Assembly: GCA_016840425.1 (NCBI GenBank)
Contig: JAEOSI010000017.1
Location: 1-20,370 of the forward strand
DNA from: Candidatus Wukongarchaeum yapensis
GTDB lineage: Archaea; Asgardarchaeota; Wukongarchaeia; Wukongarchaeales; Wukongarchaeaceae
Direction: 5' to 3'
Length of the DNA stretch: 20,370 nt
The translations under genes were made by a program, and so were the position numbers. Numbering within the stretch: position 1 is the stretch's first letter; each line of letters starts with the position of its first letter. Below, piece by piece: positions 219-20,022 of this stretch. The notes below the pieces were generated by a model. It had not been told where the DNA came from and did not search any database. It was given only the letters and a program-made list of their open reading frames with translations.

Positions 219-2603
219 TTATTCTTTTCTTTTTTTAAGCATTACTAGAGTTGCTATGGTTAAGGCTACTCCAATACTTGCGACGCCCCAGTAGATTAGT
301 TTTACGCCGAGGAGTTCGTTTTCACCACCAGGGTATTTGTATGATTGTTCTTCTGAAGTTCCCTTATTTCCTTCGCTATCTGTGCCTTCAATATAGTAGT
401 ATACGGTTGTGCCAGGTTCTTGGGTAGGTATGTCTACTGTGGCGGTTCTTGGGAACTCCCAGGGGTAACTTGCGGCGGAAGCGATGGGCATTCTAGTGTA
501 GTTTTCACTTGTACTGGTGCGGTAATTGAGTATCCCTATTTCTACTTCTGCTAATCCTATTTCTTCGATTGCTGCGGTGATTGTTACAGGCTCGTCAGAT
601 TTAACTTCACCGTGAGAACCCGAAATCACGGGGGCATCTAGGTCAAATTCACTAGATAGACTGACATTGAAATATTCTGTGTTGTTACGGAGTTTTCGAA
701 CATTTCCGGCATTGTCTCCTATTTCAATGTAGTATTGGAGGGTTTTGTTAACCGTAATTCCTACTTCTTGTAGGTCTTCAGGTAGTAGTTCGAGGCAGAA
801 GAAGTTTTCGTCGACAGGTCTGTAAACGGTTTTGTTTTTCCAATCATCTGAATAGAGATCTGATCGATAGAATATTGTTACGTTATTTATTCCTGATTCA
901 GAGTCTGATGCGTTGAACCAGATAATAAAACCGTAATTTAGGCTTGCGGTGGTTCTATCTGGGTGAACATCCTTTTTATAAGCATCGGGAGCGGTATCGT
1001 CGTCAGGTAAGTTGGCGACTGTGTATGAACTTATATTTGATTCGAAATAGTTACCAGCGGTATCAGTGCCGTTGATGTAGTATTCGAAGGTATCTCCGGC
1101 TGAGTATGTTAAGTTAAGTACGCCTTCTTTGCCAGCTTTAGGGGGGTGTACAACGCTATATAAAATATATGGTACAGCTTCCCAATCACCAGAGTTGACA
1201 CGGTAAACTATTGTTGTGTTAAGGGGGTCTAGACCTGATAGTCCGTCTTCAAAATAAGCCATAAGGTTTACTCTAGTTCGTTCGGTGATATTTGAGGGTG
1301 TGTGTTGCAAACTTTTAACTAAGGGGGCTTTATTATCGACCGCGACGGGTGCAGAGATCGTTAAAGGTCCAATGTGCTTGTATAGGGCGTTGTTTTGATC
1401 ATCAGTGAAGGATATTTTCATATGTAGTTCGCCTGGGGAGAGCTTATCGCATCTAACAATCACAGAAAATAGGGGACCAGTGGGTACCAGTGGTGGTACA
1501 ACTACTAAATCTAAGAAAAACATGGGGGGAGGTTTTGTTATGTCTTCAGTCCAAGAGCGGTAGTTTATACCGTCTTGACTGTATGAGACCTTTATCATTC
1601 CTTTTTCCATATCGAAAAGGTTCGTGTTATCGTCTGTAACTGTTAGCATTACGTAAAGGTAATCCCATGTAGTGATTACGTTGGGGTTATCGGGGTTGTT
1701 AGATGCGATTTGTACTGCTAGTACTTGGGGACCTTTATTATTTATTGGGTCGCTTGACAATTTTACTTTATGAAAATTTCCACTATTGTTGTTTATGGCT
1801 GTGTTTCCCCAAATATCTCCGGCTTTGATATATATGTAGATAGAATCGCCTATATTGAGAGTGTCAGGTATTATGAAGCTTGCTTGGAAAGCATCGAAAA
1901 CGGCTCGAGAATAGTCTTGGAGGTCATAGCCTTGTCTTATCATCGGTATTCTGTTCCAAGGTCCCTTAGAACTATTAGACCAGTATAAGAAAGCAGCTGA
2001 GAAAAAGATAAAGGATTCGTCTGAGATGTTGCATCCGACAGAAATAGCTTCTCCTGGTCCTACTTTTTCGGGTGTAATCACGATGTCTGATATAATCGGA
2101 GGTTCGCGATCAGAAGTTGATTTCACCGTGTATTCATAATAATAGCCTTGATTATCTGCTATTGCTTCATTTACACCGTCTGTAGCTGTTAAATAGTATT
2201 TCACCGTTGTTCTTGCTGGTTGGGGCGGTATAGTACCAAGCCACATATCGCCTATTTCATCGTCGTCAAATCGTATTTTTTCGCAAGATACAAGGTTAAA
2301 AGATGAGCAATCGTTTGTTGAGTAGTAGAGGGTTACTTCTTCGACACCGTCAGCATCAGCTACTGAAGTAACGACCGTACCATGATCGTGGGGTCCCACG
2401 GGAAGGGAAGCAACAATTCTGAATACGGGCGGTGTATTATCAGTCCTTGAAACACTTACTGAATCTGTAATTGTAGTTGTTGATGTCAAATGCATATTTG
2501 AAGGGGGTAATGATTGAAAAGTTAAGAGTCCTAAAACTATTACAGAGATGATAAACTGTTTTTGAGGCTTAATGTAAAATAATTTCTTCTTCTTTTTAAT
2601 CAT
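219..2603 (-). CDS. Membrane-anchored cell-surface protein with six Ig/FN3-like repeats (about 794 aa)
   Basis: N-terminal Lys-rich plus hydrophobic signal-like segment. Six modules of about 110-130 aa open with DNTPP, DREPP, NNKGP, DNKAP, DDTAP and DLDAP and close with Y-x-I-x-x-x-D-x-x-GN-like strands. C-terminal TM helix (LIYWGVASIGVALTIATLVML) followed by KKRKE. 15 N-x-S/T sequons counted. ATG at 2603 is preferred over the TTG at 2612 because GAGGAG lies 10 nt upstream of the ATG but only 1 nt from the TTG. Confidence 0.8.
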   Translation of the reverse strand: MIKKKKKLFYIKPQKQFIISVIVLGLLTFQSLPPSNMHLTSTTTITDSVSVSRTDNTPPVFRIVASLPVGPHDHGTVVTSVADADGVEEVTLYYSTNDCSSFNLVSCEKIRFDDDEIGDMWLGTIPPQPARTTVKYYLTATDGVNEAIADNQGYYYEYTVKSTSDREPPIISDIVITPEKVGPGEAISVGCNISDESFIFFSAAFLYWSNSSKGPWNRIPMIRQGYDLQDYSRAVFDAFQASFIIPDTLNIGDSIYIYIKAGDIWGNTAINNNSGNFHKVKLSSDPINNKGPQVLAVQIASNNPDNPNVITTWDYLYVMLTVTDDNTNLFDMEKGMIKVSYSQDGINYRSWTEDITKPPPMFFLDLVVVPPLVPTGPLFSVIVRCDKLSPGELHMKISFTDDQNNALYKHIGPLTISAPVAVDNKAPLVKSLQHTPSNITERTRVNLMAYFEDGLSGLDPLNTTIVYRVNSGDWEAVPYILYSVVHPPKAGKEGVLNLTYSAGDTFEYYINGTDTAGNYFESNISSYTVANLPDDDTAPDAYKKDVHPDRTTASLNYGFIIWFNASDSESGINNVTIFYRSDLYSDDWKNKTVYRPVDENFFCLELLPEDLQEVGITVNKTLQYYIEIGDNAGNVRKLRNNTEYFNVSLSSEFDLDAPVISGSHGEVKSDEPVTITAAIEEIGLAEVEIGILNYRTSTSENYTRMPIASAASYPWEFPRTATVDIPTQEPGTTVYYYIEGTDSEGNKGTSEEQSYKYPGGENELLGVKLIYWGVASIGVALTIATLVMLKKRKE

Positions 2604-2618
2604 CGTTGTCAAACTCCT

Positions 2619-5012
2619 CTATTCTTCTTCATCGAATAATTGCTTCACATCCGGAAACATCGCCTCTCCCGGGAACTCTTCAGCTTCTCCTTCTTCCTTT
2701 TTTTCAGGCAATTCTTCCCTTACTTCTTCTGCTACTACTACTTCTATTGGTCCTTCAACCTCTTTTTTCATGGCTTCTTCTGCAGCTTTTTGTGCTTCAA
2801 CAGCTTTCCGGAATACCTCCAACACTAGAGCCTCTGCTGTGGCGAAGACTTTCAAGTCACCTGTCCATCTTTCAAGTAGATGACCGTATTGTTCTGCGAA
2901 CTTTTCTGCGAACTTCTTTGCATGTTTGTGGATTATGTGTAGGTCTTTTTCTGCCACCAAAGCTACTACGAACCGCTCTTGATGTTCGAGGAGGATCTTT
3001 CTGTCTTCATGGTCTACTGCGCGTAATCTCTGTTCTGATTGCATTGATTCGGCTACGAATTGTGAAATGGCGGAAATCATTCCTGTGACAAGAGCCGAGT
3101 CTACAGCCAGCTTGCTGAATGTGTAGTCGAAAGCACAGAGACCTTCGTTGCTGAAAACGAATAGATTGTGGAGGCTTTTCTCCCAACCTCGCTCTTCCAT
3201 TTTATGTTTAACGAACAATCCTGTGGGAGTGGATAGTGCTACGGCGCCTAGAAGTAGTATGTAAGGCAGCCAGCTGATCTCCTCTTTCTCAAGTCGAGGG
3301 ACGATTGTTAAAGATACAAGGGGAGTGTATCCTATCTCGACGCCGTTGCTCCAGAAGACTGTTATGTTATACTGTCCTTCTGTTTCCCAATCATCTGTAA
3401 TTTTGAAGTTTGACGAATAGAAGTAGCCATCTACGGCTTCAGTTATGTTTTCTTGTAGGAGAATGGTTCCGTTTGGAGCTAAAAGGGTTATTTCGCACCA
3501 ATCGTTAGTGACTCCTTCGGTGACAGGATTTCCAGCAGCATCAGCTATGAAGACGCTAATCCTAGCAGTTGATTCTATTTCAATTTCGTTTGTTGTGTGC
3601 CATGTATCGCCGGAAAGTTTCTCCGTTGTAACAGTTCGGAGATAATTTGGCGATGAGAAAACAGCTGTGTATTCTCCAGATGCGATAGAGATTGCAGGAA
3701 CTATGATGCAGTTATACTCCTTGTTGAAGACCGTCTTCGTACCAAAATTTATGCCGAGGGCATCTAGGTCTACTTCAGCTCCAGTAGGATCATATAGGGC
3801 TTCAAAAGTCCAATCACTCTCATATGTTAGGTAATTTTCCCTTACAAAAAGCGAGCTACCCATTAGGGTGTAGGATACGTTCCAAGTGATCTTAGTGGGT
3901 GATACTGAGTACTTGGTGGTAGATTCGTAGCTATTAATGAAATCTGTATAGGTGTAAAGGTTTAAGGTAGGTACAGGCGCATCAACAGTGACAGTGATAT
4001 TGATATCGTAGTTAAGTTCAGTCCAAGCGGTGTCAAAGTATAAGGTGTACTCGCCGATGTAGCCCTGCAGGGTATCTTTACGAAAGGTTGGCGTGTAGTC
4101 ACCAGCAAGACCGACATCAATGCCTGTGGTAACTGTAAATCGAGCGTTAAGAGTTGAGGGATTGATCATTTCGTTTAAACCGATTTTCATTATTAGATCT
4201 GTATCCTCATCTTTAGAATAGGTCTCCCAAGCAAAATTGGACGCATTGAAGAAACTCGTAGTACCGTTGTTTGCTCTCCCTGAAAGGACATTATTTTCCA
4301 AAATCCAAGAGGAAGCAGGCACATAAGAAAGCCCCGCGTCAGTGAACCAAAATATTGCAAAATGATAATTACCTTCATCCAAGACTAAATTCATGTCCGT
4401 TATATTAATCCATCCGGTCCAAATGGTTCCCGATGGGATGGTGTTCCGGAGAAAGCCGATGTAAATCATGTTTTGACTTTCAAAATTCTCCTTGAAAACA
4501 AGAACAAGATAGTCAATTTGATTCCCATAGTCAACTATACTATAGTTAAACCATAATGACACATTATAAAGCACGCTCATTTTCTCAACTTCAAATTCTT
4601 GGGCAGCTCCAGAAACATAACCACTTTCGAGATCATCGATCGTATTCAAATTCCAACTAACATTATTTCCTATGTTTTGATATGTTGAAATTGCAGAACT
4701 TTCATCAATAGCCGTAGTAACCATGCGAATTTTATCAGCGTAGAGATCAAGACCCCATAACTGAAAAGTGGTTGATAAACCCCTACCATCGCCACTTTCA
4801 GTCAAAGTGTTTGTTGAGAATCCCTGCTCCTCCTCCCTCTCTGGATAGACTATGAATGACTTCTGATTCCGAGTTTCTCCGGTGATCTCGGAGCTTTGAA
4901 GCTCGCTTGGAGCATTACTCATTCCAGTCTGAGAAATTATGAAGAAGCAACTTAAAGAAATTAAGAAGATAAATGTTAAGGCAAAAAGAGTATTAGATTT
5001 ATGAAAAACCAT
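2619..5012 (-). CDS. Single-pass membrane protein: signal peptide, large extracellular domain, TM helix, cytoplasmic longin-like domain, acidic tail (797 aa)
   Basis: Hydrophobic N-terminus; about 550 aa beta-rich region with 11 N-x-S/T sequons; TM ISWLPYILLLGAVALSTPTGLFV (about 3205-3276). The following domain (about 2810-3175), LHNLFVFSNEGLCAFDYTF...DSALVTGMISAISQFVAE...LRAVDHEDRKILLE...FVVALVAE...FAEKFAEQY, matches the pattern of Asgard longin-like domains. Glu/Lys-rich tail. GGAGAG upstream of the ATG. Confidence 0.75.
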   Translation of the reverse strand: MVFHKSNTLFALTFIFLISLSCFFIISQTGMSNAPSELQSSEITGETRNQKSFIVYPEREEEQGFSTNTLTESGDGRGLSTTFQLWGLDLYADKIRMVTTAIDESSAISTYQNIGNNVSWNLNTIDDLESGYVSGAAQEFEVEKMSVLYNVSLWFNYSIVDYGNQIDYLVLVFKENFESQNMIYIGFLRNTIPSGTIWTGWINITDMNLVLDEGNYHFAIFWFTDAGLSYVPASSWILENNVLSGRANNGTTSFFNASNFAWETYSKDEDTDLIMKIGLNEMINPSTLNARFTVTTGIDVGLAGDYTPTFRKDTLQGYIGEYTLYFDTAWTELNYDINITVTVDAPVPTLNLYTYTDFINSYESTTKYSVSPTKITWNVSYTLMGSSLFVRENYLTYESDWTFEALYDPTGAEVDLDALGINFGTKTVFNKEYNCIIVPAISIASGEYTAVFSSPNYLRTVTTEKLSGDTWHTTNEIEIESTARISVFIADAAGNPVTEGVTNDWCEITLLAPNGTILLQENITEAVDGYFYSSNFKITDDWETEGQYNITVFWSNGVEIGYTPLVSLTIVPRLEKEEISWLPYILLLGAVALSTPTGLFVKHKMEERGWEKSLHNLFVFSNEGLCAFDYTFSKLAVDSALVTGMISAISQFVAESMQSEQRLRAVDHEDRKILLEHQERFVVALVAEKDLHIIHKHAKKFAEKFAEQYGHLLERWTGDLKVFATAEALVLEVFRKAVEAQKAAEEAMKKEVEGPIEVVVAEEVREELPEKKEEGEAEEFPGEAMFPDVKQLFDEEE

Positions 5013-5193
5013 TTTTCCAGACTCTCCACATATTTTTATCTATTACCGGATTCTGGAGGTGAAGACAGGCTCTTATATATTATATCTGAGAAATAGCAAT
5101 TTAATATTTCGATCATAAAATTGGAGATATTGGATGATTTTTCATTGAAAGTCTATCTCACTTAAAAAGGAGTAGAATTTATACATTCGATCT

Positions 5194-6396
5194 TTAGTTT
5201 TTCTTCAATTCACGAAGTTGTTTAATTAAAATCGGGACTATTTCAAGAATATCTCCAACAATCCCAAAATCAGCGACTTTGAATATTGGAGCATCTGGGT
5301 CCTTATTGATTGCTATGATGATGTCAGAAGAGCTCATTCCTACAAGATGTTGGATCGCTCCGGAGATTCCTAGGGCTATGTAGAGTTTTGGGCTTACGGT
5401 CTTTCCAGATTGGCCTACTTGGAAAGAATGGGGTAGCCATCCTAGATCTACTAGGGATCTCGAGCAGGACATTGTTCCATTTAGTTCTTCTGCTAATTCC
5501 TTGATTAATTCCAAGTTTTCTTTTGTTTGAATTCCTCGACCTGCGGAGATGAGGATATCAGCTTCTTCAATGGGAATAGTTTCCTCTTTTTGAGTAATGG
5601 CAGAATCAATGATCTTCGTCCGAATCCCTTTTGGATTAAGTTTAACAGGAATTTCTTTGATGGTTCCAGTTCGTTCAGGGTTAGGGGTTCCTTTGGGGAA
5701 CACATTGGGTCGGACTGTTGCTAGTTGGGGGCGTGTGTAGGGGGATAAGATGGAGGCCATAATATTTCCTCCAAAGGCAGGTCTGGTTTGAACTAGTTGT
5801 CGATCTTCGTTTATGTCCAGCCCTGTACAATCGGCAGTTAATCCCACTTTCAACCTTGCAGCAATTCTTGGTGCAAGGTCTCGTCCGGTCGGGGTGGCTC
5901 CGAATAGGATGATTGAGAATTTTTCTTGCATGATCACCCCGGCAATGATGTTGGTAAAACCTTCAGTAGAGTATTGTTCAAGAAGGGGGTGTTGGCATAA
6001 ATAGACTTTATCCGCTCCATGACTAATGAGGGTTTGAGTAAGTTGGGAGTTTTTTGCACCGAGTAAAATAGTGGATAGATCTTCTTCTAATTTGTCGGCT
6101 AGTATTCGACCTTTTTCGAGTATTTGGAGGGCTACGGGTTTAATTTGAGGTTCATTTTTTATTTCACATTCTGCAAAAATGCATACTCCTGAATATTTTG
6201 TTAATTCTTCTGGTGATAGCTGGGCGGGCCTTTCAATATTGAGGGCATGCTGGGGGCAGACGTTTACACAAGCTCCGCATAAGGTGCAATTTTCTAATAC
6301 TTTCGCTTTTTTATTTACAACAACTATGGCTGCGAAAGGACAGGTTTTCTCGCATAATTTGCAACCGTTACAAGCTTCTAGATCGATTTGAAGCAT
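5194..6396 (-). CDS. etfA: Electron transfer flavoprotein alpha subunit with N-terminal 2x[4Fe-4S] ferredoxin domain (LctC/CarE-like architecture)
   Basis: CNGCKLCEKTCP and CTLCGACVNVCP at the N-terminus; ETF-alpha motifs GRDLAPRIAARL, GLTADCT, QTRPAFGGN and QVGQSGKTVSPKLYIALGISGAIQHLVGM. AAGGAG RBS lies within the etfB 3' end. Confidence 0.95.
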   Translation of the reverse strand: MLQIDLEACNGCKLCEKTCPFAAIVVVNKKAKVLENCTLCGACVNVCPQHALNIERPAQLSPEELTKYSGVCIFAECEIKNEPQIKPVALQILEKGRILADKLEEDLSTILLGAKNSQLTQTLISHGADKVYLCQHPLLEQYSTEGFTNIIAGVIMQEKFSIILFGATPTGRDLAPRIAARLKVGLTADCTGLDINEDRQLVQTRPAFGGNIMASILSPYTRPQLATVRPNVFPKGTPNPERTGTIKEIPVKLNPKGIRTKIIDSAITQKEETIPIEEADILISAGRGIQTKENLELIKELAEELNGTMSCSRSLVDLGWLPHSFQVGQSGKTVSPKLYIALGISGAIQHLVGMSSSDIIIAINKDPDAPIFKVADFGIVGDILEIVPILIKQLRELKKN

Positions 6397-6401
6397 TTAT
6401 A

Positions 6402-7220
6402 TTACTCCTTGTCAACGAATACATTTTCTTGGAGGAATTCTATCAGTCTAGAGACGGCGGCTTCGGGATCGTCACTTTCGATTTTTTGCCCCCCAGTTCT
6501 ACTTTTAGGAGGGAAAATTTTGGCAACTTGAGTCGGAGATCCGCTCAAACCGAACCTTGAAGTATCTTTGCTCAAATCATCAGCGATCACGTTTTTAATC
6601 ACTTTTCTTCGCGCGTTAATTATTTCTTTAAAGGACGGAATTCTAAGGATGTTTGATCCACTGCTTACAGAGACGAGGGCTGGAAGTTTACATTCTACAA
6701 TCTCATAACCGTTTTCAGTCTCGCGTTCAACTTGAATTCTCCTTCTTTCCGGAATTAGATTAGTAGATGTTACGTAAGTAATTTGAGGTATTCCAAGGTG
6801 TTCGGCTAGTTCTGGGCCGACTTGTGCAGTATCGCCGTCGATGGCTTGTTTTCCTGTAAAAATTAAGGTGAAATCTTCTTCAAATTTTTGAATGGCTTCA
6901 CTTAAGGCTAGTGAGGTGGCTAATGTGTCCGCTCCGGCGAATTTTCGGTCACAAAGGAGGATCGCGCGATCAGCTCCTAGTTCTAAGCATCGTAAAAGGG
7001 CGCTCCGTGCTTGAGGAGGCCCCATTGTTAAAACTATAACTTCGACTTCCTCTCCTCCTCTTTCTTCTTGTTCTTTTTTGATTCTAATAGCTTCATCTAA
7101 TGCATATTCGCAAAATGGATTTAGTATGGACTGAACTCCTTCTCTTATGAGTGTACCTGTTTCTGGGTTTATCTTCACTTCACCAGCAGGAACTTGTTTT
7201 ATACATACGATTATCTTCAT
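6402..7220 (-). CDS. etfB: Electron transfer flavoprotein beta subunit, bifurcating-type motifs
   Basis: MKIIVCIKQVP, DRKFAGADTLATS and GKQAIDGDTAQVGP motifs. The start is either ATG 7220 or GTG 7226; both follow AAGGAG. Confidence 0.95.
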   Translation of the reverse strand: MKIIVCIKQVPAGEVKINPETGTLIREGVQSILNPFCEYALDEAIRIKKEQEERGGEEVEVIVLTMGPPQARSALLRCLELGADRAILLCDRKFAGADTLATSLALSEAIQKFEEDFTLIFTGKQAIDGDTAQVGPELAEHLGIPQITYVTSTNLIPERRRIQVERETENGYEIVECKLPALVSVSSGSNILRIPSFKEIINARRKVIKNVIADDLSKDTSRFGLSGSPTQVAKIFPPKSRTGGQKIESDDPEAAVSRLIEFLQENVFVDKE

Positions 7221-7235
7221 TGTCACTTAGGCTCC

Positions 7236-8870
7236 TTAAATATTTACCATATTACCGATCGAAAAAAGACCAGTTGGGTCGAGTGCTTGCTTGACTTCGA
7301 TTATTTGGCGTCTTTTATCTTCATCGAACATGATGTTAAAATATTCTTTTTTGATTTTTCCTATTCCGTGTTCGGCAGAAACTGTGCCTCCTAAGGAGAC
7401 CGCTTTTTTGGCAAAAACCTTGTAAAGTTCTTTTGCTTTCGCAAGTTCTTTTTCATCTTTTGGTAAAATGTTAATGTGGAGATGATTGTCCCCGATATGG
7501 CCGAAAATGACATGTTCTAGGTTTGATTCCCTAAGTTTTTCCCGATAAAACGATAAGATTCCAGCAAGATTGGTCTCAGGGATTATTGGCACAGCCATAT
7601 CGGTTCCAAGTTTATGAATAGTTGGATTTTTCTGTTTTCTTTCAGCGATAATGGCGTTTACTGTTTCGGGAAGGAGGTGTCGAAAGGCCGTTATCCTATC
7701 TATTTCTCGATCTTCATAACAAGCCCAGGTTTGGTCCATTGAACTATTATTTTTAATTGCAATTGTTTCTAATCTCTCGTAAAGTTCGGGAAGACTATCT
7801 TCATTATAACTGATCTCGAAAATTATTGCCGCGACATTTTTTGGGATTGGCGGCATATTAACTAGGGGGGGATCTGAAATCTGTTTTTTTCTTAAGAGTT
7901 TGAGAGAGTCTGGGCATAAGTATTCTAGAAATTCGGTTTTTAAACTTGAATCTTTTAGGCGGATATCATTCACAAAACTGGCTGCATCCATTTCAGTCGG
8001 GAAAAAAGTGGTAACAGCAATAACGTTTTCTGGTTTTTCTGTTATCCAAACTTCGACCTCCGTTATTACTCCTAAAATGCCTTCAGATCCGATGAATAGA
8101 TCGATGAGGTCCATGGAAGGTTCTGTGAAAAGGCCAGCTGCATTCTTAACATTAGTTCCTATTCTATAATAGGGGATAGAAAACGTTTTTGTTTCTCCTG
8201 CTGTGTTTTGGATAGTAAAAGTTCCTTCTGGTGAGGCGTGATATTTTCCTCGGGGAATGTCTAATATTTCCCCGTTTGCAAGGACTAGCCGGACCTTGCG
8301 AACCCATTTTCGAGTGGCTCCATATTTGTAGGAAAGAGAGCCTGAAGCATTAGTAGCTACGGTTCCTCCGAGATGGGCAGTCTTCTCTGTTGGATCTACG
8401 GGATACCAGTAAGTCTTTTCATCTTGGCTGAATTTATCCAGTAGTTCCTTTTGCTTTTCTTCTAATTCTGGAAACTTTTTCTGGATAACCTTTTCATTTA
8501 GTTCTTTAAGCGAAACTCCTGGTTGGCTTCTTACGTACCACTGTTTGGTTTTTTCATCGAATCCTAGTCCTAGAATGGCGTTAAGCTTTTCTAAGGAGAG
8601 GATAGCGCCTCCAAAGGGGACACATCCCCCAACAATACCAGTTCTGGCAGCTGAGATAGTGATAGGGACTCCTCTTTTCTCCATTTCTTGTACAACTGTA
8701 ACTATTTCTTCCTCATTTTTTGGAAAAAAAAGCCATTCTGCATAGCCCTTAAGTTTTGATTCATCGATTGTATATGAGGAAAACATCGATTCAATGTTCT
8801 CTTTTCCTTCGATTTTTCTTACTTTTTCAAAAGTAACTCCTGGCGAATATCCTGTTCTAATAAAATCCAT
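7236..8870 (-). CDS. FAD-linked D-lactate/glycolate (D-2-hydroxyacid) dehydrogenase, LctD/Dld/GlcD family
   Basis: FAD-binding PCMH region PVDPTEKTAHLGGTVATNASG and FIGSEGILGVITE; C-terminal FGHIGDNHLHINIL and GGTVSAEHGIGKIK substrate/metal-site motifs. ATG 8870 is 5 nt after AGGTGA (ORF-track GTG at 8879). The exact substrate cannot be determined from sequence alone. Confidence 0.85.
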   Translation of the reverse strand: MDFIRTGYSPGVTFEKVRKIEGKENIESMFSSYTIDESKLKGYAEWLFFPKNEEEIVTVVQEMEKRGVPITISAARTGIVGGCVPFGGAILSLEKLNAILGLGFDEKTKQWYVRSQPGVSLKELNEKVIQKKFPELEEKQKELLDKFSQDEKTYWYPVDPTEKTAHLGGTVATNASGSLSYKYGATRKWVRKVRLVLANGEILDIPRGKYHASPEGTFTIQNTAGETKTFSIPYYRIGTNVKNAAGLFTEPSMDLIDLFIGSEGILGVITEVEVWITEKPENVIAVTTFFPTEMDAASFVNDIRLKDSSLKTEFLEYLCPDSLKLLRKKQISDPPLVNMPPIPKNVAAIIFEISYNEDSLPELYERLETIAIKNNSSMDQTWACYEDREIDRITAFRHLLPETVNAIIAERKQKNPTIHKLGTDMAVPIIPETNLAGILSFYREKLRESNLEHVIFGHIGDNHLHINILPKDEKELAKAKELYKVFAKKAVSLGGTVSAEHGIGKIKKEYFNIMFDEDKRRQIIEVKQALDPTGLFSIGNMVNI

Positions 8871-8963
8871 TAAATTCACCTGTAATATCGATCTTGACTT
8901 TGGTGCATCAGTTTTCGTAATAGGATTGGTTTTTTAGGCGGATTATATATGTTTTTTCTTTTT

Positions 8964-10004
8964 CTAATAGTTGTTTGGTCCTATCATGGTGTTTAAGAGT
9001 TGGAAGTCTTCTTTTCTTTTTGCAAAAACGCCGACATTTCCAAGCCTTATATTTTTAAGACCTACGCGTTTTGCTAAGATAAAGGCTTCGATCATCTCAT
9101 GAATCGTTGGAGATCTTACATTACTCATCTTATATATTGGGAAAAAAGCTAATATGCAGAACGGGATCTCTGGGTCCACTTCTTTTAGAATTTCCGCTAT
9201 TTTTCTTATTTGTTCTGCGTCAACCCATCCTGGTATAAGGAGGCTTAACACTTCTAATACAAAGCCCATATCTAAAATCATTGCAGGTAGTTCTAATATT
9301 CTCTCATTTGAAGCCCCTGTTAGCTTTTTATGCACTTTTGAGTCGTATGCTTTTATGTCAAGCCAAAAAGAATCTATTTCCGCACTTTGAAACGCTTCTA
9401 AATTTTTCGGCGTCAATCCATACCCGTTTGTTTCGATAAGCATCCAAAAATCACTTAATTCTTTTTTAACGATATTCGAGACTTCACAATAATATTCTGG
9501 TCGGCATGCTAGATCTCCGCCTGTGAAGGCTGCTATATTTCTCGCAGGCCCAAAACCTTGAGGGCTTAAAACTATTCTTTCTTGCTCCAGTAAGCCAGGA
9601 CAAAAATCGGATCTTTTACCGTATATTATGCAAGATCCACATCCTCTACAGAGGTCGTGGGCGTGCCATGCTGTTGCCCGATGTCTTGGCTCTTTAAAAG
9701 TTATTTTTTCCGCGTAAGAAATTATTTCCTCAGCAATTTCTTCGGAGGTATACCATTGACCGTTTGCAATTTGGGTGAACTCCCATGAGTGACATTTTAA
9801 ACATGACCAGTTGCAACCACTTTGATAGATGGAGTAGTAGTGCTCAGGGCGGGATAAATGAGCGGATTTTATGAGACGTTCAAGGCCTTTTCCTGTTTTT
9901 CTAAGTGTTATTTCGCACGCGCTCCCGCTCCTAGTAGCAGCTATTGTTTTGCATGCTCCTCTTTTAAAACCTTGAAGCTCTAGGTTGCATTTTGAGTTAA
10001 CCAT
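8964..10004 (-). CDS. Radical SAM protein, PflA/glycyl-radical-activating-enzyme-like fold
   Basis: GCNWSCLKCH (CxxxCxxC), AFTGGD, IETNG, LDIKA and GNVGVF motifs. The start is uncertain: ATG 10004 follows a purine-rich GAAGG; the ORF track starts at 10106. Confidence 0.85.
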   Translation of the reverse strand: MVNSKCNLELQGFKRGACKTIAATRSGSACEITLRKTGKGLERLIKSAHLSRPEHYYSIYQSGCNWSCLKCHSWEFTQIANGQWYTSEEIAEEIISYAEKITFKEPRHRATAWHAHDLCRGCGSCIIYGKRSDFCPGLLEQERIVLSPQGFGPARNIAAFTGGDLACRPEYYCEVSNIVKKELSDFWMLIETNGYGLTPKNLEAFQSAEIDSFWLDIKAYDSKVHKKLTGASNERILELPAMILDMGFVLEVLSLLIPGWVDAEQIRKIAEILKEVDPEIPFCILAFFPIYKMSNVRSPTIHEMIEAFILAKRVGLKNIRLGNVGVFAKRKEDFQLLNTMIGPNNY

Positions 10005-10124
10005 AAGCCTTCTCTTCTCATAACCTTCTTTAACATTACTATGATAACAGATAGAAAACAAAATAATAAAACTAGGATTAGACAGACAAGAACCGCTTTT
10101 ATTCAATCATTTTATTTGCTTTCT

Positions 10125-10132
10125 ATATATAA
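10125..10132 (-). promoter_or_regulatory. Candidate archaeal TATA box (TTATATAT) for the radical SAM gene
   Basis: TTATATAT on the minus strand upstream of the radical SAM gene; motif match only, in AT-rich DNA. Confidence 0.3.
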
Positions 10133-10544
10133 CCATAGACTGAATGATGTTATAGATCCTCATTCCCAAGATCCTTGGCTTCTTCCTCGCCCCTAACGCT
10201 GTTTGGAGGCTGTAAGCACTCCCTCAGGATATGCTTTGCTTCCTTCTCCTCTAGCACTCTCATCTTCTCGCGGATGTATAAAATCCTTAAGCTTTTATTT
10301 CTCCCCCAATTTTCTCTTAGAAGCTATTTTAGTTGTCCTCTACCCCATAAAGAGGTTGGATTTTTACCCTACCTCTTATATTTTTATGTTTTTAAGGTTA
10401 AACTATTTTTATAGGATTTCGATTTTTATGTTACAAATCTTTTTTACCTAAAAGTGATATCTATCAAGGGGATAGTCTTTTTTTTCAATTTTTTTTAAAA
10501 AATTTATGAATAAAAATTTTCCTAAAGCTTCTCTAACCAATTAA

Positions 10545-10552
10545 TTTATAAA
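10545..10552 (+). promoter_or_regulatory. Candidate TATA box (TTTATAAA) upstream of cdhE
   Basis: Canonical archaeal TATA octamer about 90 nt upstream of the start. It is palindromic and sits in AT-rich DNA, so the evidence is weak. Confidence 0.3.
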
Positions 10553-10641
10553 TAATATCGAGGTTTTTTTTCCTACATTTTATTATTCTAAGTTTTAGTT
10601 TAAGTGATTGTTTCATTCTTTTTTAAGGAGGATCATTTGCT

Positions 10642-12060
10642 TTGGTGAGATTGTCTCCGTTAACGGTTCATGGTTTGTTGCCGGGTATTAACTGTAAGAA
10701 GTGCGGGGAGGTGACTTGTCTTGCTTTTGCTTCTAAGCTTGTTGCGAGAACGGCTGAAGTTGAGGCTTGTACTCCTCTTTTTGAGGAGGAGCAGTATGCT
10801 GAGAAGAGGCAAAAGCTGATTGAGTTGATTACGCCTCCGGTTGTTTCTGTGAAGATTGGTGGAGGTGAAAGGACCGTTGTTGTAGGCGGTGAGGAGGTTT
10901 TATATAGGCATGATTTGACGTTTTATCATCCTTGTGCTTTGGCTATTGATATTAGTGATGAGATGGATGAAGAGACGGTAAAGAAGAGGGCTGAGTGGGC
11001 TGATAGGTTAAAGATTGAGCGTATAGGCAAGGTTTTAACTTTAAACCTTATAGCGGTTAGGGATGTTTCGGATGATCCTGAAAAGTTTGCCAAGGTTGTT
11101 TCATGGGTTCGGGAATCTGCTGGTTTACCGTTGATTTTGTGTTCTTATAATCCTGAGGCGATTAAGGCGGCTTTGGATGTATGCGAGATGGATAGACCGT
11201 TAGTGTATGCTGCGACTGAGAATAACTGGCAAGAGATCGCTCCTCTTGTCAAAAAGTATAACGTTCCTGTTTGTGTTTCAGCTCCAGATAATTTAACATT
11301 GCTAAAACAGTTAGCTGTAACGCTTCAAGCCTATGGAATAAAGGATATAGTTCTTGATCCTGGCACTTTTATTGATAACGGTGGCTTGAATAGGACTCTT
11401 CAGAACTTTGCGCTTTTAAGGCGTGCTGGAATAGAACAGGAAGAGGAAGGGGTAGGGTTCCCGTTGTTGGGCATACCTGCCATAGCATGGGCTAATGGGG
11501 AAGATTCTGTGACGAACGCTTATACGGAGGCTATAGTTGCATCGATGCTTATAGCAAAGTATGCGGATATTTTGATTCTTCACAGCGAGGATGTATGGTC
11601 GCTTCTCCCCGTGTTCACGCTTAGGCAAAACATCTACTCTGATCCAAGAATACATCCCGCGATAGATCCGGGCATTAGGGAGATTGGTAACCCGACTCCA
11701 GAGTCACCAGTATTTGTGACTGCGAATTTTGCCCTTACATATCACACTATAGAGTCAGATCTTGAAGATGGGAAGATAGATTCTTGGATTCTTGTTGTGG
11801 ATACTGAAGGCATTGGTATAGAATCAGCGGTAGCAGGAAGGCAATTTTCCGCAGTTAAAATAAAAGAGGCTATTGATGAGTTTGATTTAGAATCTAAGGT
11901 AAGTCATAGGGTTATGATGTTGTCTGGCCTTGCGTCAAGGATAAGCGGTGAAACTGAAGAGGAAACAGGATGGAAAGTGATCGTTGGTCCGAAAGACTCA
12001 GGGGGCCTCAAGGCAATGAACTTAAAGGAGCTTTGGGAGAAAAAAGCACAAGAAGAATAA
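10642..12060 (+). CDS. cdhE: Corrinoid iron-sulfur protein large subunit (CODH/ACS gamma subunit)
   Basis: N-terminal LLPGINCKKCGEVTCLAFA...C Fe-S domain; GGEEVLYRHDLTF; TIM-barrel region with DIVLDPGT; C-terminal corrinoid domain PVFVTANFALTY...LVVDTEGIGIESAVAGRQF...VGPKDS. AAGGAGG 10 nt before the TTG start. Confidence 0.95.
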   Translation: MVRLSPLTVHGLLPGINCKKCGEVTCLAFASKLVARTAEVEACTPLFEEEQYAEKRQKLIELITPPVVSVKIGGGERTVVVGGEEVLYRHDLTFYHPCALAIDISDEMDEETVKKRAEWADRLKIERIGKVLTLNLIAVRDVSDDPEKFAKVVSWVRESAGLPLILCSYNPEAIKAALDVCEMDRPLVYAATENNWQEIAPLVKKYNVPVCVSAPDNLTLLKQLAVTLQAYGIKDIVLDPGTFIDNGGLNRTLQNFALLRRAGIEQEEEGVGFPLLGIPAIAWANGEDSVTNAYTEAIVASMLIAKYADILILHSEDVWSLLPVFTLRQNIYSDPRIHPAIDPGIREIGNPTPESPVFVTANFALTYHTIESDLEDGKIDSWILVVDTEGIGIESAVAGRQFSAVKIKEAIDEFDLESKVSHRVMMLSGLASRISGETEEETGWKVIVGPKDSGGLKAMNLKELWEKKAQEE

Positions 12061-12090
12061 AATAAAGCTTTTGAGCTTTTTATTTTTTTT
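12061..12090. terminator. Probable bidirectional terminator between convergent cdhE and methyltransferase genes
   Basis: Short hairpin aaagct-tttg-agcttt followed by tttatttttttt on the plus strand; the A-rich left flank gives a T-tract on the minus strand. Confidence 0.5.
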
Positions 12091-12110
12091 ATAGTATATC
12101 GTTTTTGGGT

Positions 12111-12689
12111 CTATTTTTTTATCGAGTTTATTGCATACCAAAGTTCAAATTCTTTTATTTCAAGAATTTCTAACTCGTTTTTTTCTAAAACTTCTACCAG
12201 TTTCTCTGGTGGATCAAGAAAGTGGTGTGGCGCATGACGTACAAAAGTCGAAGCTTTTGCTTTCCACTCAACTATTATAAGTTTCCCTCCAGGGCTTAAT
12301 ACACGCGCTATTTCTTCTACGGCGATGTCTAGGTTTTCTACATGATGGAGCGTTAATGCTGAGATGGCGGCGTCGAAAAAATCGTCTTTAAAGGGTAATT
12401 TTTCGACGAAACCTTCTTTAAACACGACTCTACCCCCCAATCCTCGCGTTTCTAATTGGTGTTTAGCGTCTTCTATGACCTCTGAGGAAGGATCGATCGA
12501 GTACACATGTCCTGGTTCATTGAACAGACCTGCTAATAAGCGGCACGCATAACCATAACCTGTACCTACATCTAAAACGATCATATCAGGCATGAATTCC
12601 CCGAAAAGTAAGACGGTTTCTTCCATTTTTTCCTGGATTTTTTCCCGCTCAGGATCTTGTTTATGACCTTTTTTATGGTGTTTTTCCAT
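12111..12689 (-). CDS. Class I SAM-dependent methyltransferase (UbiE/Methyltransf_11-like)
   Basis: VLDVGTGYG motif I, LPFKDDFFDAAIS, LHHV and ARVLSPGGKLIIVEW. ATG 12689 follows AAAGGTGAAAAG (ORF track starts at 12728). The substrate is unknown. Confidence 0.9.
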   Translation of the reverse strand: MEKHHKKGHKQDPEREKIQEKMEETVLLFGEFMPDMIVLDVGTGYGYACRLLAGLFNEPGHVYSIDPSSEVIEDAKHQLETRGLGGRVVFKEGFVEKLPFKDDFFDAAISALTLHHVENLDIAVEEIARVLSPGGKLIIVEWKAKASTFVRHAPHHFLDPPEKLVEVLEKNELEILEIKEFELWYAINSIKK

Positions 12690-12813
12690 CTTTTCACCTT
12701 TATAATACATAAAAGTATTAGCCTCCAAAACAAAAAACTATTAACTTAATATTTAAATTATTTTATGATATTCTTGTTAAGATTATGAATTAGTTTCAGT
12801 ATGGTGGTTTCAG

Positions 12814-13425
12814 GTGAGCGAAGAAGTTTCAAAAATTGATTTGATAAAAGAAGAAGTCGCTGGTACTTCTAGTATTGTTGGTGATTTGGTTTTAGAGTTT
12901 GAAAAGATTTTGGATGAAGGAGAGCGTAAAACTGTTGAAGATATGATTCGTGATTCGCGAGAAACTTGGTTTCCTGCAAAGCTCATAATAAAATGGGAAG
13001 AAAAGGGAGAAGAGAGGATAATAAGGCTTGTCGCTGTTGGTGGCGTGAATTACGTCACGCTTTATGATAAAGGTGATGGGTATTATGAAGGAGAACGGCT
13101 TTTCTTGCTCATAAAAACTATTAAAGATGTTTTTCCAAGCCTTTCGAGGATTGGATTCTCCATAGTAACTCCTTTCGAATGGATGGAAAAATGGCTTGAA
13201 AAGGGAAAACCTGTTAAGTCTCCTATATCGATAAAGTTTGGTTATAAATGGGATGTAGGAGATACTAGCAGGCTTTTTGGAGGTTACGGTGCAGATCGAA
13301 TAATGGAATTTTCGACACAAAAAGGGGAAGAATTCGAGCCAGTTGAACTGTTAAGTATGCTTAGAAACCTTAATAAAAGGTCTCCATTAAATGAAATAAC
13401 TGCTCTCCTAATGTTCTCCATATAA
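12814..13425 (+). CDS. Hypothetical protein (203 aa)
   Basis: Open frame filling the gap between known genes; GGTGG 6 nt before the GTG; soluble alpha/beta-like composition; no family recognised. Confidence 0.7.
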   Translation: MSEEVSKIDLIKEEVAGTSSIVGDLVLEFEKILDEGERKTVEDMIRDSRETWFPAKLIIKWEEKGEERIIRLVAVGGVNYVTLYDKGDGYYEGERLFLLIKTIKDVFPSLSRIGFSIVTPFEWMEKWLEKGKPVKSPISIKFGYKWDVGDTSRLFGGYGADRIMEFSTQKGEEFEPVELLSMLRNLNKRSPLNEITALLMFSI

Positions 13426-13507
13426 AGATGTTAGGGAAGGTAGTTCTGTAAATTTATTGTTGGTATAACATTAGGGTTGACAGAAGTTCGCTAAGAGAAT
13501 GTGGTTT

Positions 13508-14803
13508 TTATATCTTTTGGAGAAGGTTTTGGAGGATTTCTTTATCGGGTAAGCAGTTTTCACTCGGAGAATCGAGGAACTTTCTCAATTTTTTTGTTTG
13601 CATGTCCATTCTTATCATCGTGCCTTCTGTCTCTACCCCGGTTATAGTAGCGGGAATAGCTACTGAAGCCTTTTTAACGGTTAAATTCATCTGGGTATCT
13701 ATTACGATTAAAGGAATATTTTGTAATTTTTCCACTAATTTTTGGGGAAAACTGGCGAAAGGATTCGCGCCAATGATCAACGCTGCATCGCAATCCCCGT
13801 TGATTAAGGCTTCTGTCACCGTTGTCTTCTCCGGAGGATTTTTTGAAAAATCTATACCGTAACCATAGGGCACTCCAGCCATCTTTTTTGCTGCTAGGTT
13901 AAATCCTAGCATGTTACTGTGTCCTATCATGGGCATTAGTGAAAATTGCCCCTTGAGATTTGGGTGTTTTACGAGTTTTATTAAACCTTCAATGTTTTCC
14001 TTGAAATTTTCTTGCTGGAGGATTCCAAGGCCGAAAAAGATTGTGCCAAACTGTGCTTTTTTCATCATTTTACCAAAATCGATGATGTCTTTTTTCATGA
14101 TCCCTCCTACATTTTCAGGCAATTCTTTGCCGGATAGATATTCAATTAAAGCTTTTATTAGGTTTAAGTCCTTTTCTGGCTCTATTTGTAAGAATAGGTT
14201 TATTCCTTTGGCGGATCTTGTTTTTATGACGTCAACAACGACGACTTCCCTTTCCAATCTTCCTGTGATTCTGACTTTTCCCCGGGGAAAAACGGTGTAT
14301 CGGCTTAGGTGTCTGCTGTGAGAATCGGCAGGGTTAGACCCCCAATAGACCACAAGATCTGCCATATCCCCTACTTCTTCTAAAGTGGGACATTTGAACT
14401 CCTCCCTGGAAATCTCTTCTATCAATCTTAAAGAAATTCCATGACAAATGCTTGAAGTGGAATCTATGACACCTTCAAGCTTTTCAGCAAGTTGTATCCC
14501 TACTTCTTGGGCTTCATAACTAACGCTGCCCCAACCGTATAACAACGGCTTTTTTGCTCGTGAAAGAAGATTACAAGCCACATCTAATGCCTCGCTTAAA
14601 TGAGCGGGCTTTAACCTTCCTTCCTCCAAGATAAGGGGGTTAGTTAATCGATTGGGAGAGTTAACAAGTTTTAAAAAAGCATCCCCCCGCATGCATGCGT
14701 TATAAGTGGAAACAATTTTTCCATCATTAATAACGCAAAAAACATCATCACAAAGCAAAGAGCAATGAGGACAAACAATCCTTTCTACCTGTCCCAAAGC
14801 CAA
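13508..14803 (-). CDS. fwdB: Formylmethanofuran dehydrogenase subunit B-like Mo/W-bis-pterin protein
   Basis: CPHCSLLCDD...ACMRG [4Fe-4S] motif; PLLYGWGS; DSTSSICHG (metal-ligand Cys, TGT at 14444-14446); VVYWGSNPADSHSRHLSRY; GVETEGTMIRMD. GGTGA upstream of the TTG start. Confidence 0.92.
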   Translation of the reverse strand: MALGQVERIVCPHCSLLCDDVFCVINDGKIVSTYNACMRGDAFLKLVNSPNRLTNPLILEEGRLKPAHLSEALDVACNLLSRAKKPLLYGWGSVSYEAQEVGIQLAEKLEGVIDSTSSICHGISLRLIEEISREEFKCPTLEEVGDMADLVVYWGSNPADSHSRHLSRYTVFPRGKVRITGRLEREVVVVDVIKTRSAKGINLFLQIEPEKDLNLIKALIEYLSGKELPENVGGIMKKDIIDFGKMMKKAQFGTIFFGLGILQQENFKENIEGLIKLVKHPNLKGQFSLMPMIGHSNMLGFNLAAKKMAGVPYGYGIDFSKNPPEKTTVTEALINGDCDAALIIGANPFASFPQKLVEKLQNIPLIVIDTQMNLTVKKASVAIPATITGVETEGTMIRMDMQTKKLRKFLDSPSENCLPDKEILQNLLQKI

Positions 14804-15085
14804 GATCTTTCACCTTTCATAATTTAAAATAGTAAACGTCTTTAATTACTCTGATAACTAAAGTAACTTACATAATTTTAAAGTTGAATGCCGTAAGAAG
14901 CTTTATACTCTCCTTAAAAAGCTAGGTTAATACGTTATTACAGCAGCTATAACCATATCTTATAGATTTGATAATATGTTTCATAATTATATTAACTGCA
15001 ATTTAATATCTCATTTTTTAAATTATATTTTATAACAATATTAGGCAACTAAATCATTAATAATTATAATATAATTATAATACCG

Positions 15086-15586
15086 CTATATTAGAATTTT
15101 TATTGCTTCTGTGAAACAGTATATTTCGCACACGCGGCATTGGGCATAGGAAAGTTTTTCCGTGTCGGCGTACCTGCGGCATTTTGTGAGGTCGATTATT
15201 TTTGCTTTTCCATCCTTTACAACATAGATAACGTTTTCCTCTTTTTCTGGGGCTACCCCTATGCCTGCGGATGATTCTGGGTTTTCTGCAACGTTTACTG
15301 GGCAAACAATCAGGCAGTTACCGCATCCGATGCATTTTTCTTCTTCAAGAATTATTCCTGTTTCTAAGGCCTCGCTTAGAGGGGTTAGGAGTTCTTGGAG
15401 CTTTTTTAACTGTTTTTCGTAGGCTTTTTCTTCAAAGAGAGGCGTGCATTTTTCGAGTTCGATTTGGCGTCCTAGGAGTTTAACTGCAAAGGCCATACAT
15501 CCTGATTCGCCGCATTTTTTACAATTAGTTTTAGGAAGGAGTTGGAACACTTCGAAAGCATTCAATTTTGTCAAAAATGGCACCAC
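15086..15586 (-). CDS. fwdG: FwdG-like ferredoxin with N-terminal CdhE/RnfB-type Fe-S domain
   Basis: LLPKTNCKKCGESGCMAFA...CTPL domain followed by CIGCGNCLIVCPVN (typical of FwdG) and a second cluster motif C-x13-CRVCEIYC. The start may be TTG 15574, which follows GTGGTG. Confidence 0.75.
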   Translation of the reverse strand: MVPFLTKLNAFEVFQLLPKTNCKKCGESGCMAFAVKLLGRQIELEKCTPLFEEKAYEKQLKKLQELLTPLSEALETGIILEEEKCIGCGNCLIVCPVNVAENPESSAGIGVAPEKEENVIYVVKDGKAKIIDLTKCRRYADTEKLSYAQCRVCEIYCFTEAIKILI

Positions 15587-15737
15587 ACTGTTAAGAGTGT
15601 TGAGAAAATGTGTTTTGAAAGTTTATTAATTTTACTTTAAAGCCTAGTAGATTATTTAAAATTAAAAATTAGGTATTATCTTTAATCTTTTATAGAGATA
15701 TTACTTAAAGTTTATAAGAAAAAGGATGAAAAATTAT

Positions 15738-15745
15738 TTTATAAA
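15738..15745 (+). promoter_or_regulatory. Candidate TATA box (TTTATAAA) in the fwdG / hdrA divergent spacer
   Basis: Canonical octamer preceded by a purine-rich GATGAAAAA stretch, about 125 nt upstream of hdrA. Confidence 0.3.
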
Positions 15746-15870
15746 CAGGTTTTTGTTGCTTTAGCTCCTATCTTTTAACGATTTCATTTTTGTATCTTTA
15801 TCGAGTATGTTTTTTGGGTGTTGTTTGAATTAATATTAAGGGTTTGATCAGTTTTCGGGGTGTTTTTTAG

Positions 15871-18249: not shown

Positions 18250-18255
18250 AATGCT

Positions 18256-19590: not shown

Positions 19591-19626
19591 AAAACGAAAA
19601 AGAATAGAATACTATTAAAAGAGGGG

Positions 19627-20022
19627 TTAGGAAGGGATTATAGGGGTTATTTTTTCCGTGGTTCGTTTTATGGTGGCTTTTATGTTTTTATAACGGGGTA
19701 TGCTACTTCCTTCAGGGGGTCCTGTGAGAAGGTTGGCCCAAGGACCTTTGGGTATTGCTATTACTCCTTTTTGAACCCCGTTTTCTTTTACTGCTCTAAC
19801 TACAACTAAACCGTAATTTGTCATTATTTTAACTCTGTCTCCTTCTTTTAAATTCAACACCTTGAAGTCTTCTTCGCTTATTTTACACAAAGCCATTGTT
19901 TCAACATATTCCTCGCTATTTTCAGCAAAGTTTTCCCTAGCCCCTTGTTCCGCTGTCCTTATAGTGATTAAAACGACATCTATCTCAATCTCTCCTAAAA
20001 GCGACCTATCAACTAAAGACAT
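19627..20022 (-). CDS. fwdD: Formylmethanofuran dehydrogenase subunit D-like (molybdopterin dinucleotide-binding domain)
   Basis: LITIRTAEQG, LNLKEGDRVKIMTNYGLVVVRA, GVIAIPKGPWAN and PRYKNI match the FwdD pattern. Confidence 0.88.
   Translation of the reverse strand: MSLVDRSLLGEIEIDVVLITIRTAEQGARENFAENSEEYVETMALCKISEEDFKVLNLKEGDRVKIMTNYGLVVVRAVKENGVQKGVIAIPKGPWANLLTGPPEGSSIPRYKNIKATIKRTTEKITPIIPS

Follow-up and report, generated by a model that had tools for sequence, protein, structure and literature searches.

A large, lineage-specific expansion of longin and roadblock domains in Asgard archaea, with much shuffling of the architectures that carry them, has already been published (PMC4917890, 10.1101/2020.10.19.343400, PMC10933270), and these sources give a sense of its extent: Lokiarchaeum has 41 longin-like domains, with fusion to an Arf-like GTPase in five of them (PMC4917890, citing Klinger 2016), the longin/roadblock superfamily takes up 130 Asgard clusters of orthologous genes (asCOGs), NPRL2-like longins fused to two-component domains being among the architectures described (Liu 2021, 10.1101/2020.10.19.343400), and both structures and models of Asgard longin/roadblock proteins are given (Tran 2024, PMC10933270). 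Fusions of a longin to a GTPase in Asgard archaea are found in the same sources (PMC4917890, PMC10933270, 10.1101/2020.10.19.343400), and those longin/roadblock platforms that have been characterised work as dimers, docking a small GTPase or serving to put together adaptor complexes (PMC10933270). In bacteria, the Group 1 Rup operons encode a protein made of a domain of unknown function (DUF), a transmembrane (TM) helix and an OmpA domain beside a Ras-like GTPase (Wuichet and Sogaard-Andersen 2014, PMC4316618). The stretch analyzed here, 20,370 nucleotides of Candidatus Wukongarchaeum yapensis (assembly GCA_016840425.1, contig JAEOSI010000017.1, positions 1 to 20,370; the whole of it is called the window below), carries on its minus strand, at 2619-5012, a gene for a receptor-like membrane protein with a longin domain on its cytoplasmic side, a known Asgard domain in an architecture of which we have found no description.

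The minus-strand frame from 5012 to 2619 is unbroken over 797 amino acids (aa; protein P0001), and the parts of the gene, each with what it rests on, are as follows.

2619-5012, minus strand: whole gene, encoding a 797-aa type I membrane protein, stop codon at 2619-2621 (open reading frame list, translation)
4929-4991, minus strand: N-terminal hydrophobic segment, residues 8-28, Sec signal peptide or signal anchor (hydropathy)
3276-4925, minus strand: ectodomain, residues 30-579 (~550 aa), all-beta, with several beta-sandwich domains (AlphaFold, AF2, model)
4167-4700, minus strand: lectin-like jelly-roll domain, residues ~105-282 (VIA structural match)
3285-3647, minus strand: membrane-proximal macroglobulin/Ig-like beta-sandwich, residues ~456-576 (VIA structural match)
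3210-3272, minus strand: single TM helix, residues 581-601 (hydropathy, flanking charges)
3177-3209, minus strand: juxtamembrane linker, residues 602-612 (11 residues), with R608 and W610 invariant in the family
2781-3176, minus strand: predicted cytoplasmic longin-fold domain, residues 613-744 (AF2 model and structural matches)
2622-2780, minus strand: acidic C-terminal tail, residues 745-797 (charge count, alignment A2, described below)

That the inner domain has the longin fold is supported by its predicted structure: the AF2 model, built on an alignment of 139 domain sequences (A1), reached a mean pLDDT of 94.2 and a pTM of 0.88, and its elements, among them the five strands of an antiparallel sheet, follow the order beta-beta-alpha-beta-beta-beta-alpha-alpha, which is that of longins and not that of roadblocks (DSSP: E13-20, E25-30, H38-56, E64-67, E70-76, E80-86, H91-113, H119-143, model residues 12-143 being protein residues 613-744). 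Foldseek against the PDB gave 61 matches at E<=1e-3, the best 50 of which are all longin or roadblock proteins, and the best rows of the VIA comparison are longins, with Z values of 12.7-13.2 and 119-127 residues aligned, C-terminal helices included, at a root-mean-square deviation (rmsd) of 2.7-3.4. Among them are TRAPPC4 (2j3t_D, Z 13.2, 127 residues), Sec22b (1ifq_B, 12.9), Fuzzy LD1 (9rs8_A, 12.8) and VAMP7 (4afi_A, 12.7), followed by COPI zeta, AP sigma and Ykt6, each spanning model residues 12 to ~140; the roadblocks MglB and LAMTOR2 reach a Z of ~11 over only 100-105 residues, their alignments ending before the last helices. The Swiss-Prot portion of AFDB added MON1A/B, TRAPPC1/4, AP mu/sigma and LAMTOR2, and, with no more than 1 Z unit between the leading longins, no one eukaryotic family stands out as the closest. 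Sequence comparison points in the same direction with less force, the A1 profile ranking TRAPPC1 first among PDB sequences at a weak E of 0.038, and the sub-threshold Pfam matches of the 139 relatives falling to Sybindin (8), Fuz_longin_1 (8), Intu_longin_1 (5), Robl_LC7 (2) and Longin (1). Profilin is absent from the best 50 rows of the Foldseek and VIA comparisons with the PDB and AFDB, an absence that does not amount to its exclusion.

Narrower identities for the inner domain were tried and rejected. Roadblock/LC7 (PF03259) does not fit a domain that has only a 4-residue helical turn before beta1, two extra C-terminal helices and no Pfam match; a SNARE does not fit a longin that follows the TM helix (the reverse of the SNARE order), a protein with no synaptobrevin/SNARE match and a tail that is acidic and of low complexity; and a tri-longin subunit of a guanine nucleotide exchange factor (GEF), as in Mon1, Ccz1, Fuzzy, Inturned and HPS1/4, does not fit a protein with a single longin domain at residues 613-744. 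A homodimer predicted from two copies of the longin domain scored 0.01, in a run made without controls that speaks neither for nor against a dimer.

The placement of this domain inside the cell was assessed on P0001 together with 11 relatives of the same length and layout, their alignment (A2) defining what is here called the ectodomain-TM-longin family. A Kyte-Doolittle scan of the 797-aa protein shows hydrophobic segments at residues 8-28 and 581-601 and nowhere else, the first of them being preceded by a K/R-bearing n-region in 12/12 family members. All 11 N-X-S/T sequons of P0001 lie within residues 117-549, with 0 after the TM helix, and over the 12 members 226 sequons fall in the ectodomains (20-51 per 1000 aa) while the inner parts have 5; within 15 residues of the TM helix, P0001 itself has 2 K+R outside and 4 inside, and the 12 members together have 5 on the ectodomain side against 65 on the longin side. 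The linker that joins helix and domain forms short helical turns in the AF2 model. Other relatives bear on the matter as well: P0043, P0049 and P0054 (526-540 aa) are MFS transporters whose C-terminal end is the longin module, a transceptor-like layout, and since the termini of MFS transporters are cytoplasmic, so should be the module. An N-out/C-in single-pass glycoprotein with its longin domain in the cytoplasm is therefore the topology that sequence features support. The initial annotation had proposed just these parts, namely a signal peptide, a glycosylation-rich ectodomain of about 550 aa, one TM helix, a 120-aa longin domain at ~2810-3175 (residues 613-735) and an acidic tail; hydropathy, sequon and charge counts recovered all the others, the AlphaFold and Foldseek check returned a folded longin domain coinciding with the one proposed, and its cytoplasmic placement was borne out by the charge and sequon distribution of the 12 members and by the MFS fusions, an extracellular placement not being seen.

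The full-length family is diverged, and P0001 is a diverged member of it. The 11 relatives, 23-27% identical, align with it over its whole length, and A2 has 30 invariant columns, spread across ectodomain, linker and inner domain (A137, Q138, D400, W401, W554, R608 and W610 among them); P0001 has the features of the family, i.e., the end-to-end alignment, the ectodomain motifs and the juxtamembrane R-x-W. A word-indexed search with the full-length protein returned P0001 itself only, and a profile of the 12 relatives added one weak match; the relatives used here were obtained by an exhaustive HMMER search with residues 602-745, which gave 956 representative clusters at E<=1e-3, 149 of them at E<=1e-10. 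When one genome per species was scanned across 185,579 prokaryotic species with two conserved family peptides, 29/29 confirmed loci proved to lie in Asgard metagenome-assembled genomes (MAGs), labelled Promethearchaeota/-ia, Hod-, Hermod-, Hel- and Odinarchaeota. The longin module itself is far more widespread, the A1 profile having matches in 149/151 Asgard genomes sampled (27 families), more than 2,400 in total, with typically 10 to 26 or more copies per genome. Both the expansion of longin domains in Asgard genomes and the occurrence there of similar proteins, which the initial annotation had stated or supposed, are thus in agreement with the survey.

The genome from which the window comes (2.16 Mb, 92% complete) has 12-13 longin-module matches, some of them in soluble proteins that also have HEAT repeats or winged helix-turn-helix (wHTH)-like ends. 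Two further single-pass proteins, each with a large, sequon-rich ectodomain, a TM helix and a longin-like domain of more remote similarity that is extended far at its C-terminal side, were seen in it, one of 846 aa with PKD in the ectodomain (C235:2057-4594, L040) and one of 942 aa (C211:1248-4073, L041), so that at least three receptor-like longin proteins are present in this genome. The module also lies inside HEAT-repeat proteins, of 705 aa, between two HEAT arrays (C4:8616-10730, minus strand), and of 672 aa (C150:2615-4630, plus strand).

What the module is attached to was counted among the best 150 of the 956 relatives, which fall into the following classes.

Single-pass proteins with a large ectodomain: 26 of the best 150
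Short forms with 1-2 TM segments, many of them fragments: 22 of the best 150
Proteins with 3-7 TM segments: 48 of the best 150
Proteins with 8 or more TM segments: 33 of the best 150
Proteins with no TM segment before the domain: 21 of the best 150

At least one TM segment precedes the domain in 129 of these 150, and in 107 the domain begins no more than 35 residues after a TM segment; the median extension past the domain is 1 residue. The module belongs to a large, mostly Asgard family, and by these sequence-based counts it nearly always forms the cytoplasmic C-terminus of a membrane protein, a TM-anchored tail being the prevailing setting of this longin subfamily. When the ESM Atlas was searched by shape, the fold was seen behind 6-7TM Asgard proteins (TM-score 0.88), in Thermoplasmatota on surface proteins with PKD/CARDB and on receiver-domain proteins, and, in Asgard clusters, in domains fused to Arf/Ras GTPases and V4R/TRAPPC3-like domains; bacterial OmpA-family clusters (6,862 members in Pseudomonadota; 92, with BON, in Cyanobacteriota) also matched the longin model, at TM-scores of 0.80-0.81 over ~138 residues. 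A feature search of the Atlas, distinct from the search by shape, gave scores that were all <0.9 and are to be taken as leads only.

One cytoplasmic module behind so many unrelated membrane input parts argues for a shared transducer or docking module, and what such a module might do is suggested by analogy. The preferred reading is that the longin module would be a common membrane-anchored platform for docking or transduction, pairing with a second longin/roadblock domain (as in MglB-MglA, TRAPP-Rab1, Mon1-Ccz1-Rab7, Ragulator-Rag and SRX-SRbeta) and in this way recruiting or regulating, at the membrane, one of the 17-21 Ras-superfamily GTPases of the genome, whether directly or through a second longin/roadblock protein; ligand binding by the ectodomain or its clustering, e.g., by a glycan, would change what docks inside, and the acidic tail could add a second, lineage-specific contact. 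Its grounds are that the characterised longin/roadblock platforms dock GTPases and that candidate partners exist in this genome, with 21 matches to the Ras family (17 at E<1e-28) and 9 to roadblock; we would put the chance that such a platform at the membrane recruits or regulates a GTPase under ectodomain control at somewhat below even. The broader proposition, that the TM-anchored longin module is a general receptor-to-small-GTPase coupling device of Asgard archaea, by which, in each genome, dozens of different receptors at the surface, 7TM proteins and MFS transceptors would bring GTPases devoid of a lipid anchor to the membrane, is a doubtful one at present.

Several observations weigh against this platform reading and have to be set beside it. 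Longin folds also serve in matters unrelated to GTPases, such as SNARE regulation and coat subunits. The 797-aa protein itself has no match at E<=1 to the longin-type Pfam families PF13774 Longin, PF04099 Sybindin, PF19036 Fuz_longin_1 or PF19031 Intu_longin_1, and it departs from the consensus of its own family at conserved polar or glycine positions (R695H, K697H, E706A, G678Q). Where its relatives share a conserved helical tail of ~70 aa, it has an unrelated acidic stretch instead (A2 columns 840-930; 21 D/E against 7 K/R in the last 57 residues), which is probably disordered. No GTPase, roadblock or second longin gene was found in the 20-kb window or in the contig to which it belongs (C145), no neighbour is conserved between the window and the 29 other loci, and no more than 5/30 family loci, all of one syntenic subclade, have a Ras-like gene at a distance of up to 6 kb. 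Lastly, the bacterial parallel that speaks for the reading, in the Group 1 Rup operons, plausibly extends to the OmpA-family Atlas clusters, but goes by an automatic cluster name.

The missing linkage is in itself weak evidence, as the GTPases of MK-D1 generally lie outside operons with roadblock or longin genes (Tran 2024, PMC10933270). What synteny there is among the family loci is limited to subclades and involves MFS, Ras-like GTPase, leucine-rich repeat (LRR)/HEAT proteins, an acyltransferase and HAD; at L012:7351-9485, and likewise at L021, L027 and L032, the genes for the receptor, an MFS transporter and a 183-aa Ras-family GTPase come one after the other in this order on one strand. 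Overall, the density of Ras-like genes near the family loci (~1 per 57 kb, as compared with 1 per 100-125 kb in the window's own genome) is roughly at background, and the GTPase count of this genome is low beside the 109 of Lokiarchaeum (PMC4917890). Of the outside-in sensor coupled to a longin/roadblock-GTPase module that had been proposed for this gene, fold, topology and family thus stand, while a GTPase or roadblock linkage is absent from window and contig, and proximity elsewhere is close to chance. Elsewhere in the genome, at L002 (C249:7619-10873), genes for a 180-aa Rab/Ras-like GTPase (2651-3193), a 222-aa GrpE-like protein (1896-2564) and the closest soluble longin paralogue, of 279 aa and with a wHTH-like end (1006-1845), follow each other head to tail with short gaps, all on the minus strand; nowhere else in this genome does a longin gene lie clearly close to one for a GTPase.

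The rival that survives best takes its departure from the outer part of the protein and from the gene next door. The AF2 model of the ectodomain (m3a097376d891; pLDDT 76.6) consists of strands only and was built from just 16 sequences, and whole-chain Foldseek comparisons of it stayed at TM-scores <0.21 throughout, which leaves only the single-domain matches usable. Among these, residues ~105-282 resemble the phage phi812 baseplate protein 9eui_Q (VIA Z 13.8, 149 residues aligned, rmsd 3.0) and the lectin-like domain of the Clostridioides difficile S-layer protease Cwp84 (4d59_A, Z 13.0, 147 aligned), and residues ~456-576 resemble the MG2 domains of complement C5 (4e0s_A, Z 11.9, 103 aligned, rmsd 2.5) and alpha2-macroglobulin (2p9r_A, Z 11.5) as well as an archaeal S-layer protein (7ptp_A, Z 10.8), while residues 30-104 and 283-455 gave no domain assignment. 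Such a model would suit a stalked head that binds a ligand or a glycan. The gene is flanked on its two sides as follows.

219-2612, minus strand: downstream gene, tightly coupled, encoding a 797-aa surface protein with an N-terminal signal and a C-terminal TM anchor
5013-5193, minus strand: upstream intergenic region, with AT-rich, TATA-like stretches at ~5072-5087 and ~5031-5040 (read from the sequence)

The downstream gene begins 6-15 nt past the stop of the longin-tailed one, its start being either TTG at 2612 or, more likely, ATG at 2603, 9 nt behind AGGAG, and its product, also of exactly 797 aa, has repeated beta domains, ends in KKRKE after its TM anchor and matches no Pfam family. Its being a paralogue of P0001 was considered and rejected (BLASTP E 0.47).

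On this footing P0001 could be a structural or adhesive surface protein whose ectodomain is a part of the envelope or an adhesin, perhaps together with the downstream protein, and whose tail only anchors, oligomerises or sorts it (by way of the cytoskeleton, ESCRT or envelope assembly), with no GTPase signalling involved. The tight coupling to a second, unrelated and C-terminally anchored surface protein speaks for this, as do the resemblance of the ectodomain to S-layer, macroglobulin and lectin-like modules and a neighbourhood without GTPase linkage, and roadblock/longin folds are also found as plain adaptor subunits, e.g., dynein LC7 and AP sigma. Hard to explain by an envelope role, however, is the same tail on MFS transporters and 6-7TM proteins that have no large ectodomain, and the downstream gene is not kept beside the loci of the relatives (29 loci compared); we regard a purely structural protein as rather unlikely, though one to be reckoned with. 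An improbable alternative is that the longin domain senses a small ligand or metabolite from within, in the manner of GAF/PAS-type folds, and so controls transport or adhesion inside-out: its fusion to MFS transporters would suit this, longins have been grouped with PAS/GAF-like folds (PMC4917890), and the conserved polar residues D638, E655, S659, D667 and D670 could line a pocket, but neither GAF nor PAS is among the best 50 structural matches, and a single-pass protein offers little membrane machinery to regulate. We also know of no longin domain that binds a small ligand. A membrane-tethered gene regulator, with the cytoplasmic part acting on DNA or on a transcription factor, is very improbable, since, for all that the giant relatives P0050 and P0104 carry a PF24409 winged helix (wHTH-PRTase_assc) after the longin domain and soluble paralogues in the same genome end in wHTH-like sequence, the 797-aa protein has no winged helix, its tail is acidic and of low complexity only, and the helical tail of its closest relatives matches no HTH model.

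The gene behind all of this is not a chance open reading frame, as the 11 full-length relatives that align throughout, a near-identical metagenome contig and the pattern of single-nucleotide polymorphisms (SNPs) attest, even though Pfam and NCBIfam match no part of the 797-aa protein. A contig from an independent sediment metagenome (X3) spans 1068-5200 with 4 differences, the stretch is present in sediment, marsh and mangrove metagenomes from 13 studies, and the 16 population SNPs listed within the gene comprise 9 synonymous and 7 nonsynonymous ones. A population in run X10, ~1-1.5% diverged, has a 1-nt deletion at 2615, solely in the spacer between the two surface genes, which bears out the independence of their frames. 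A GGAG at 5024-5027, read from the sequence, stands 11 nt ahead of the ATG of the longin-tailed gene. In the RNA library X20, contigs cover four pieces of the downstream gene (415-2587) and none covers 2619-5012; these data being assembled contigs, neither expression nor silence of the latter gene is readable from them. The rest of the window (5194-20022) holds genes of anaerobic energy metabolism, without visible functional tie to the surface genes: electron transfer flavoprotein (ETF) alpha with an N-terminal ferredoxin domain, ETF beta, an FAD-linked oxidase, a radical SAM protein and CdhD, and further a methyltransferase, pieces of a molybdopterin oxidoreductase, an HdrA-MvhD fusion and a poly-ferredoxin.

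The wider interest of the module lies in a question of eukaryogenesis on which it bears, namely how archaeal GTPases reach membranes and receive signals. Asgard genomes hold dozens of Ras-superfamily GTPases and of roadblock/longin proteins, and yet, to our knowledge, they have neither prenylation machinery nor complexes of eukaryote-type GEFs and GTPase-activating proteins (GAPs) that would place and control these GTPases. Membrane-fixed longin tails, whether behind lectin-like ectodomains or MFS transporters, are concrete baits in this respect, being small, confidently folded and screenable against the GTPase set of a genome. Should the tails bind no GTPase, the longin expansion of Asgard archaea would have been mostly about the tails of membrane proteins, and not about vesicle traffic.

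Set against the described systems, the longin domain of P0001 shares fold and order of elements with TRAPPC1/TRAPPC4 (Bet5/Trs23), with the first longins of Mon1/Ccz1 (Mon1 9rs7_A, VIA Z 11.0) and with Fuzzy/Inturned, at an identity to TRAPPC, Mon1 and Fuzzy longins of only 8-12%; these eukaryotic longins, however, are soluble parts of multi-subunit GEFs or of tri-longin proteins, whereas the single longin of P0001 is anchored by a TM helix. The R-SNAREs Sec22b, VAMP7 and Ykt6 likewise have the longin fold in a membrane-anchored protein, but their order is longin, SNARE motif and C-terminal tail anchor, with almost nothing across the membrane, while that of P0001 is ectodomain, TM helix and longin. 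The nearest functional parallel in the literature, the Group 1 Rup protein, is also a membrane protein with a conserved cytoplasmic domain; there, however, the domain is N-terminal, OmpA lies outside, and the protein is bacterial and GTPase-linked, P0001 having the opposite order and no such linkage. Of the same phylum and the same fold superfamily are the longin/roadblock families counted among the eukaryotic signature proteins (ESPs) of Asgard archaea (Lokiarchaeal longin 8yqg_A, VIA Z 10.8; MK-D1 Roadblock3 9jue_A, Z 11.1). As far as the literature searched goes, the published Asgard longins are soluble proteins or fusions to GTPases, TRAPPC3 or two-component domains, and a description of a TM-anchored receptor, 7TM or MFS class of longins was not found there, which is no proof of its absence.

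In Ragulator-Rag/SLC38A9 and in SRalpha SRX-SRbeta, finally, a roadblock/longin platform held at the membrane docks a small GTPase, and both have recognizable counterparts of fold here (LAMTOR2, VIA Z ~11; SRX, Z 10.4-10.7), the MFS-longin fusions of this family recalling the transporter-coupled Ragulator in particular. The means of attachment differ, Ragulator being anchored by the lipidated LAMTOR1 and SRbeta by a TM helix of its own, and neither is one polypeptide with a large ectodomain, and the likeness is confined to the working principle. Were the module nonetheless a general coupling device, it would be a prokaryotic forerunner of the Ragulator-SLC38A9-Rag and SRalpha-SRbeta platforms.

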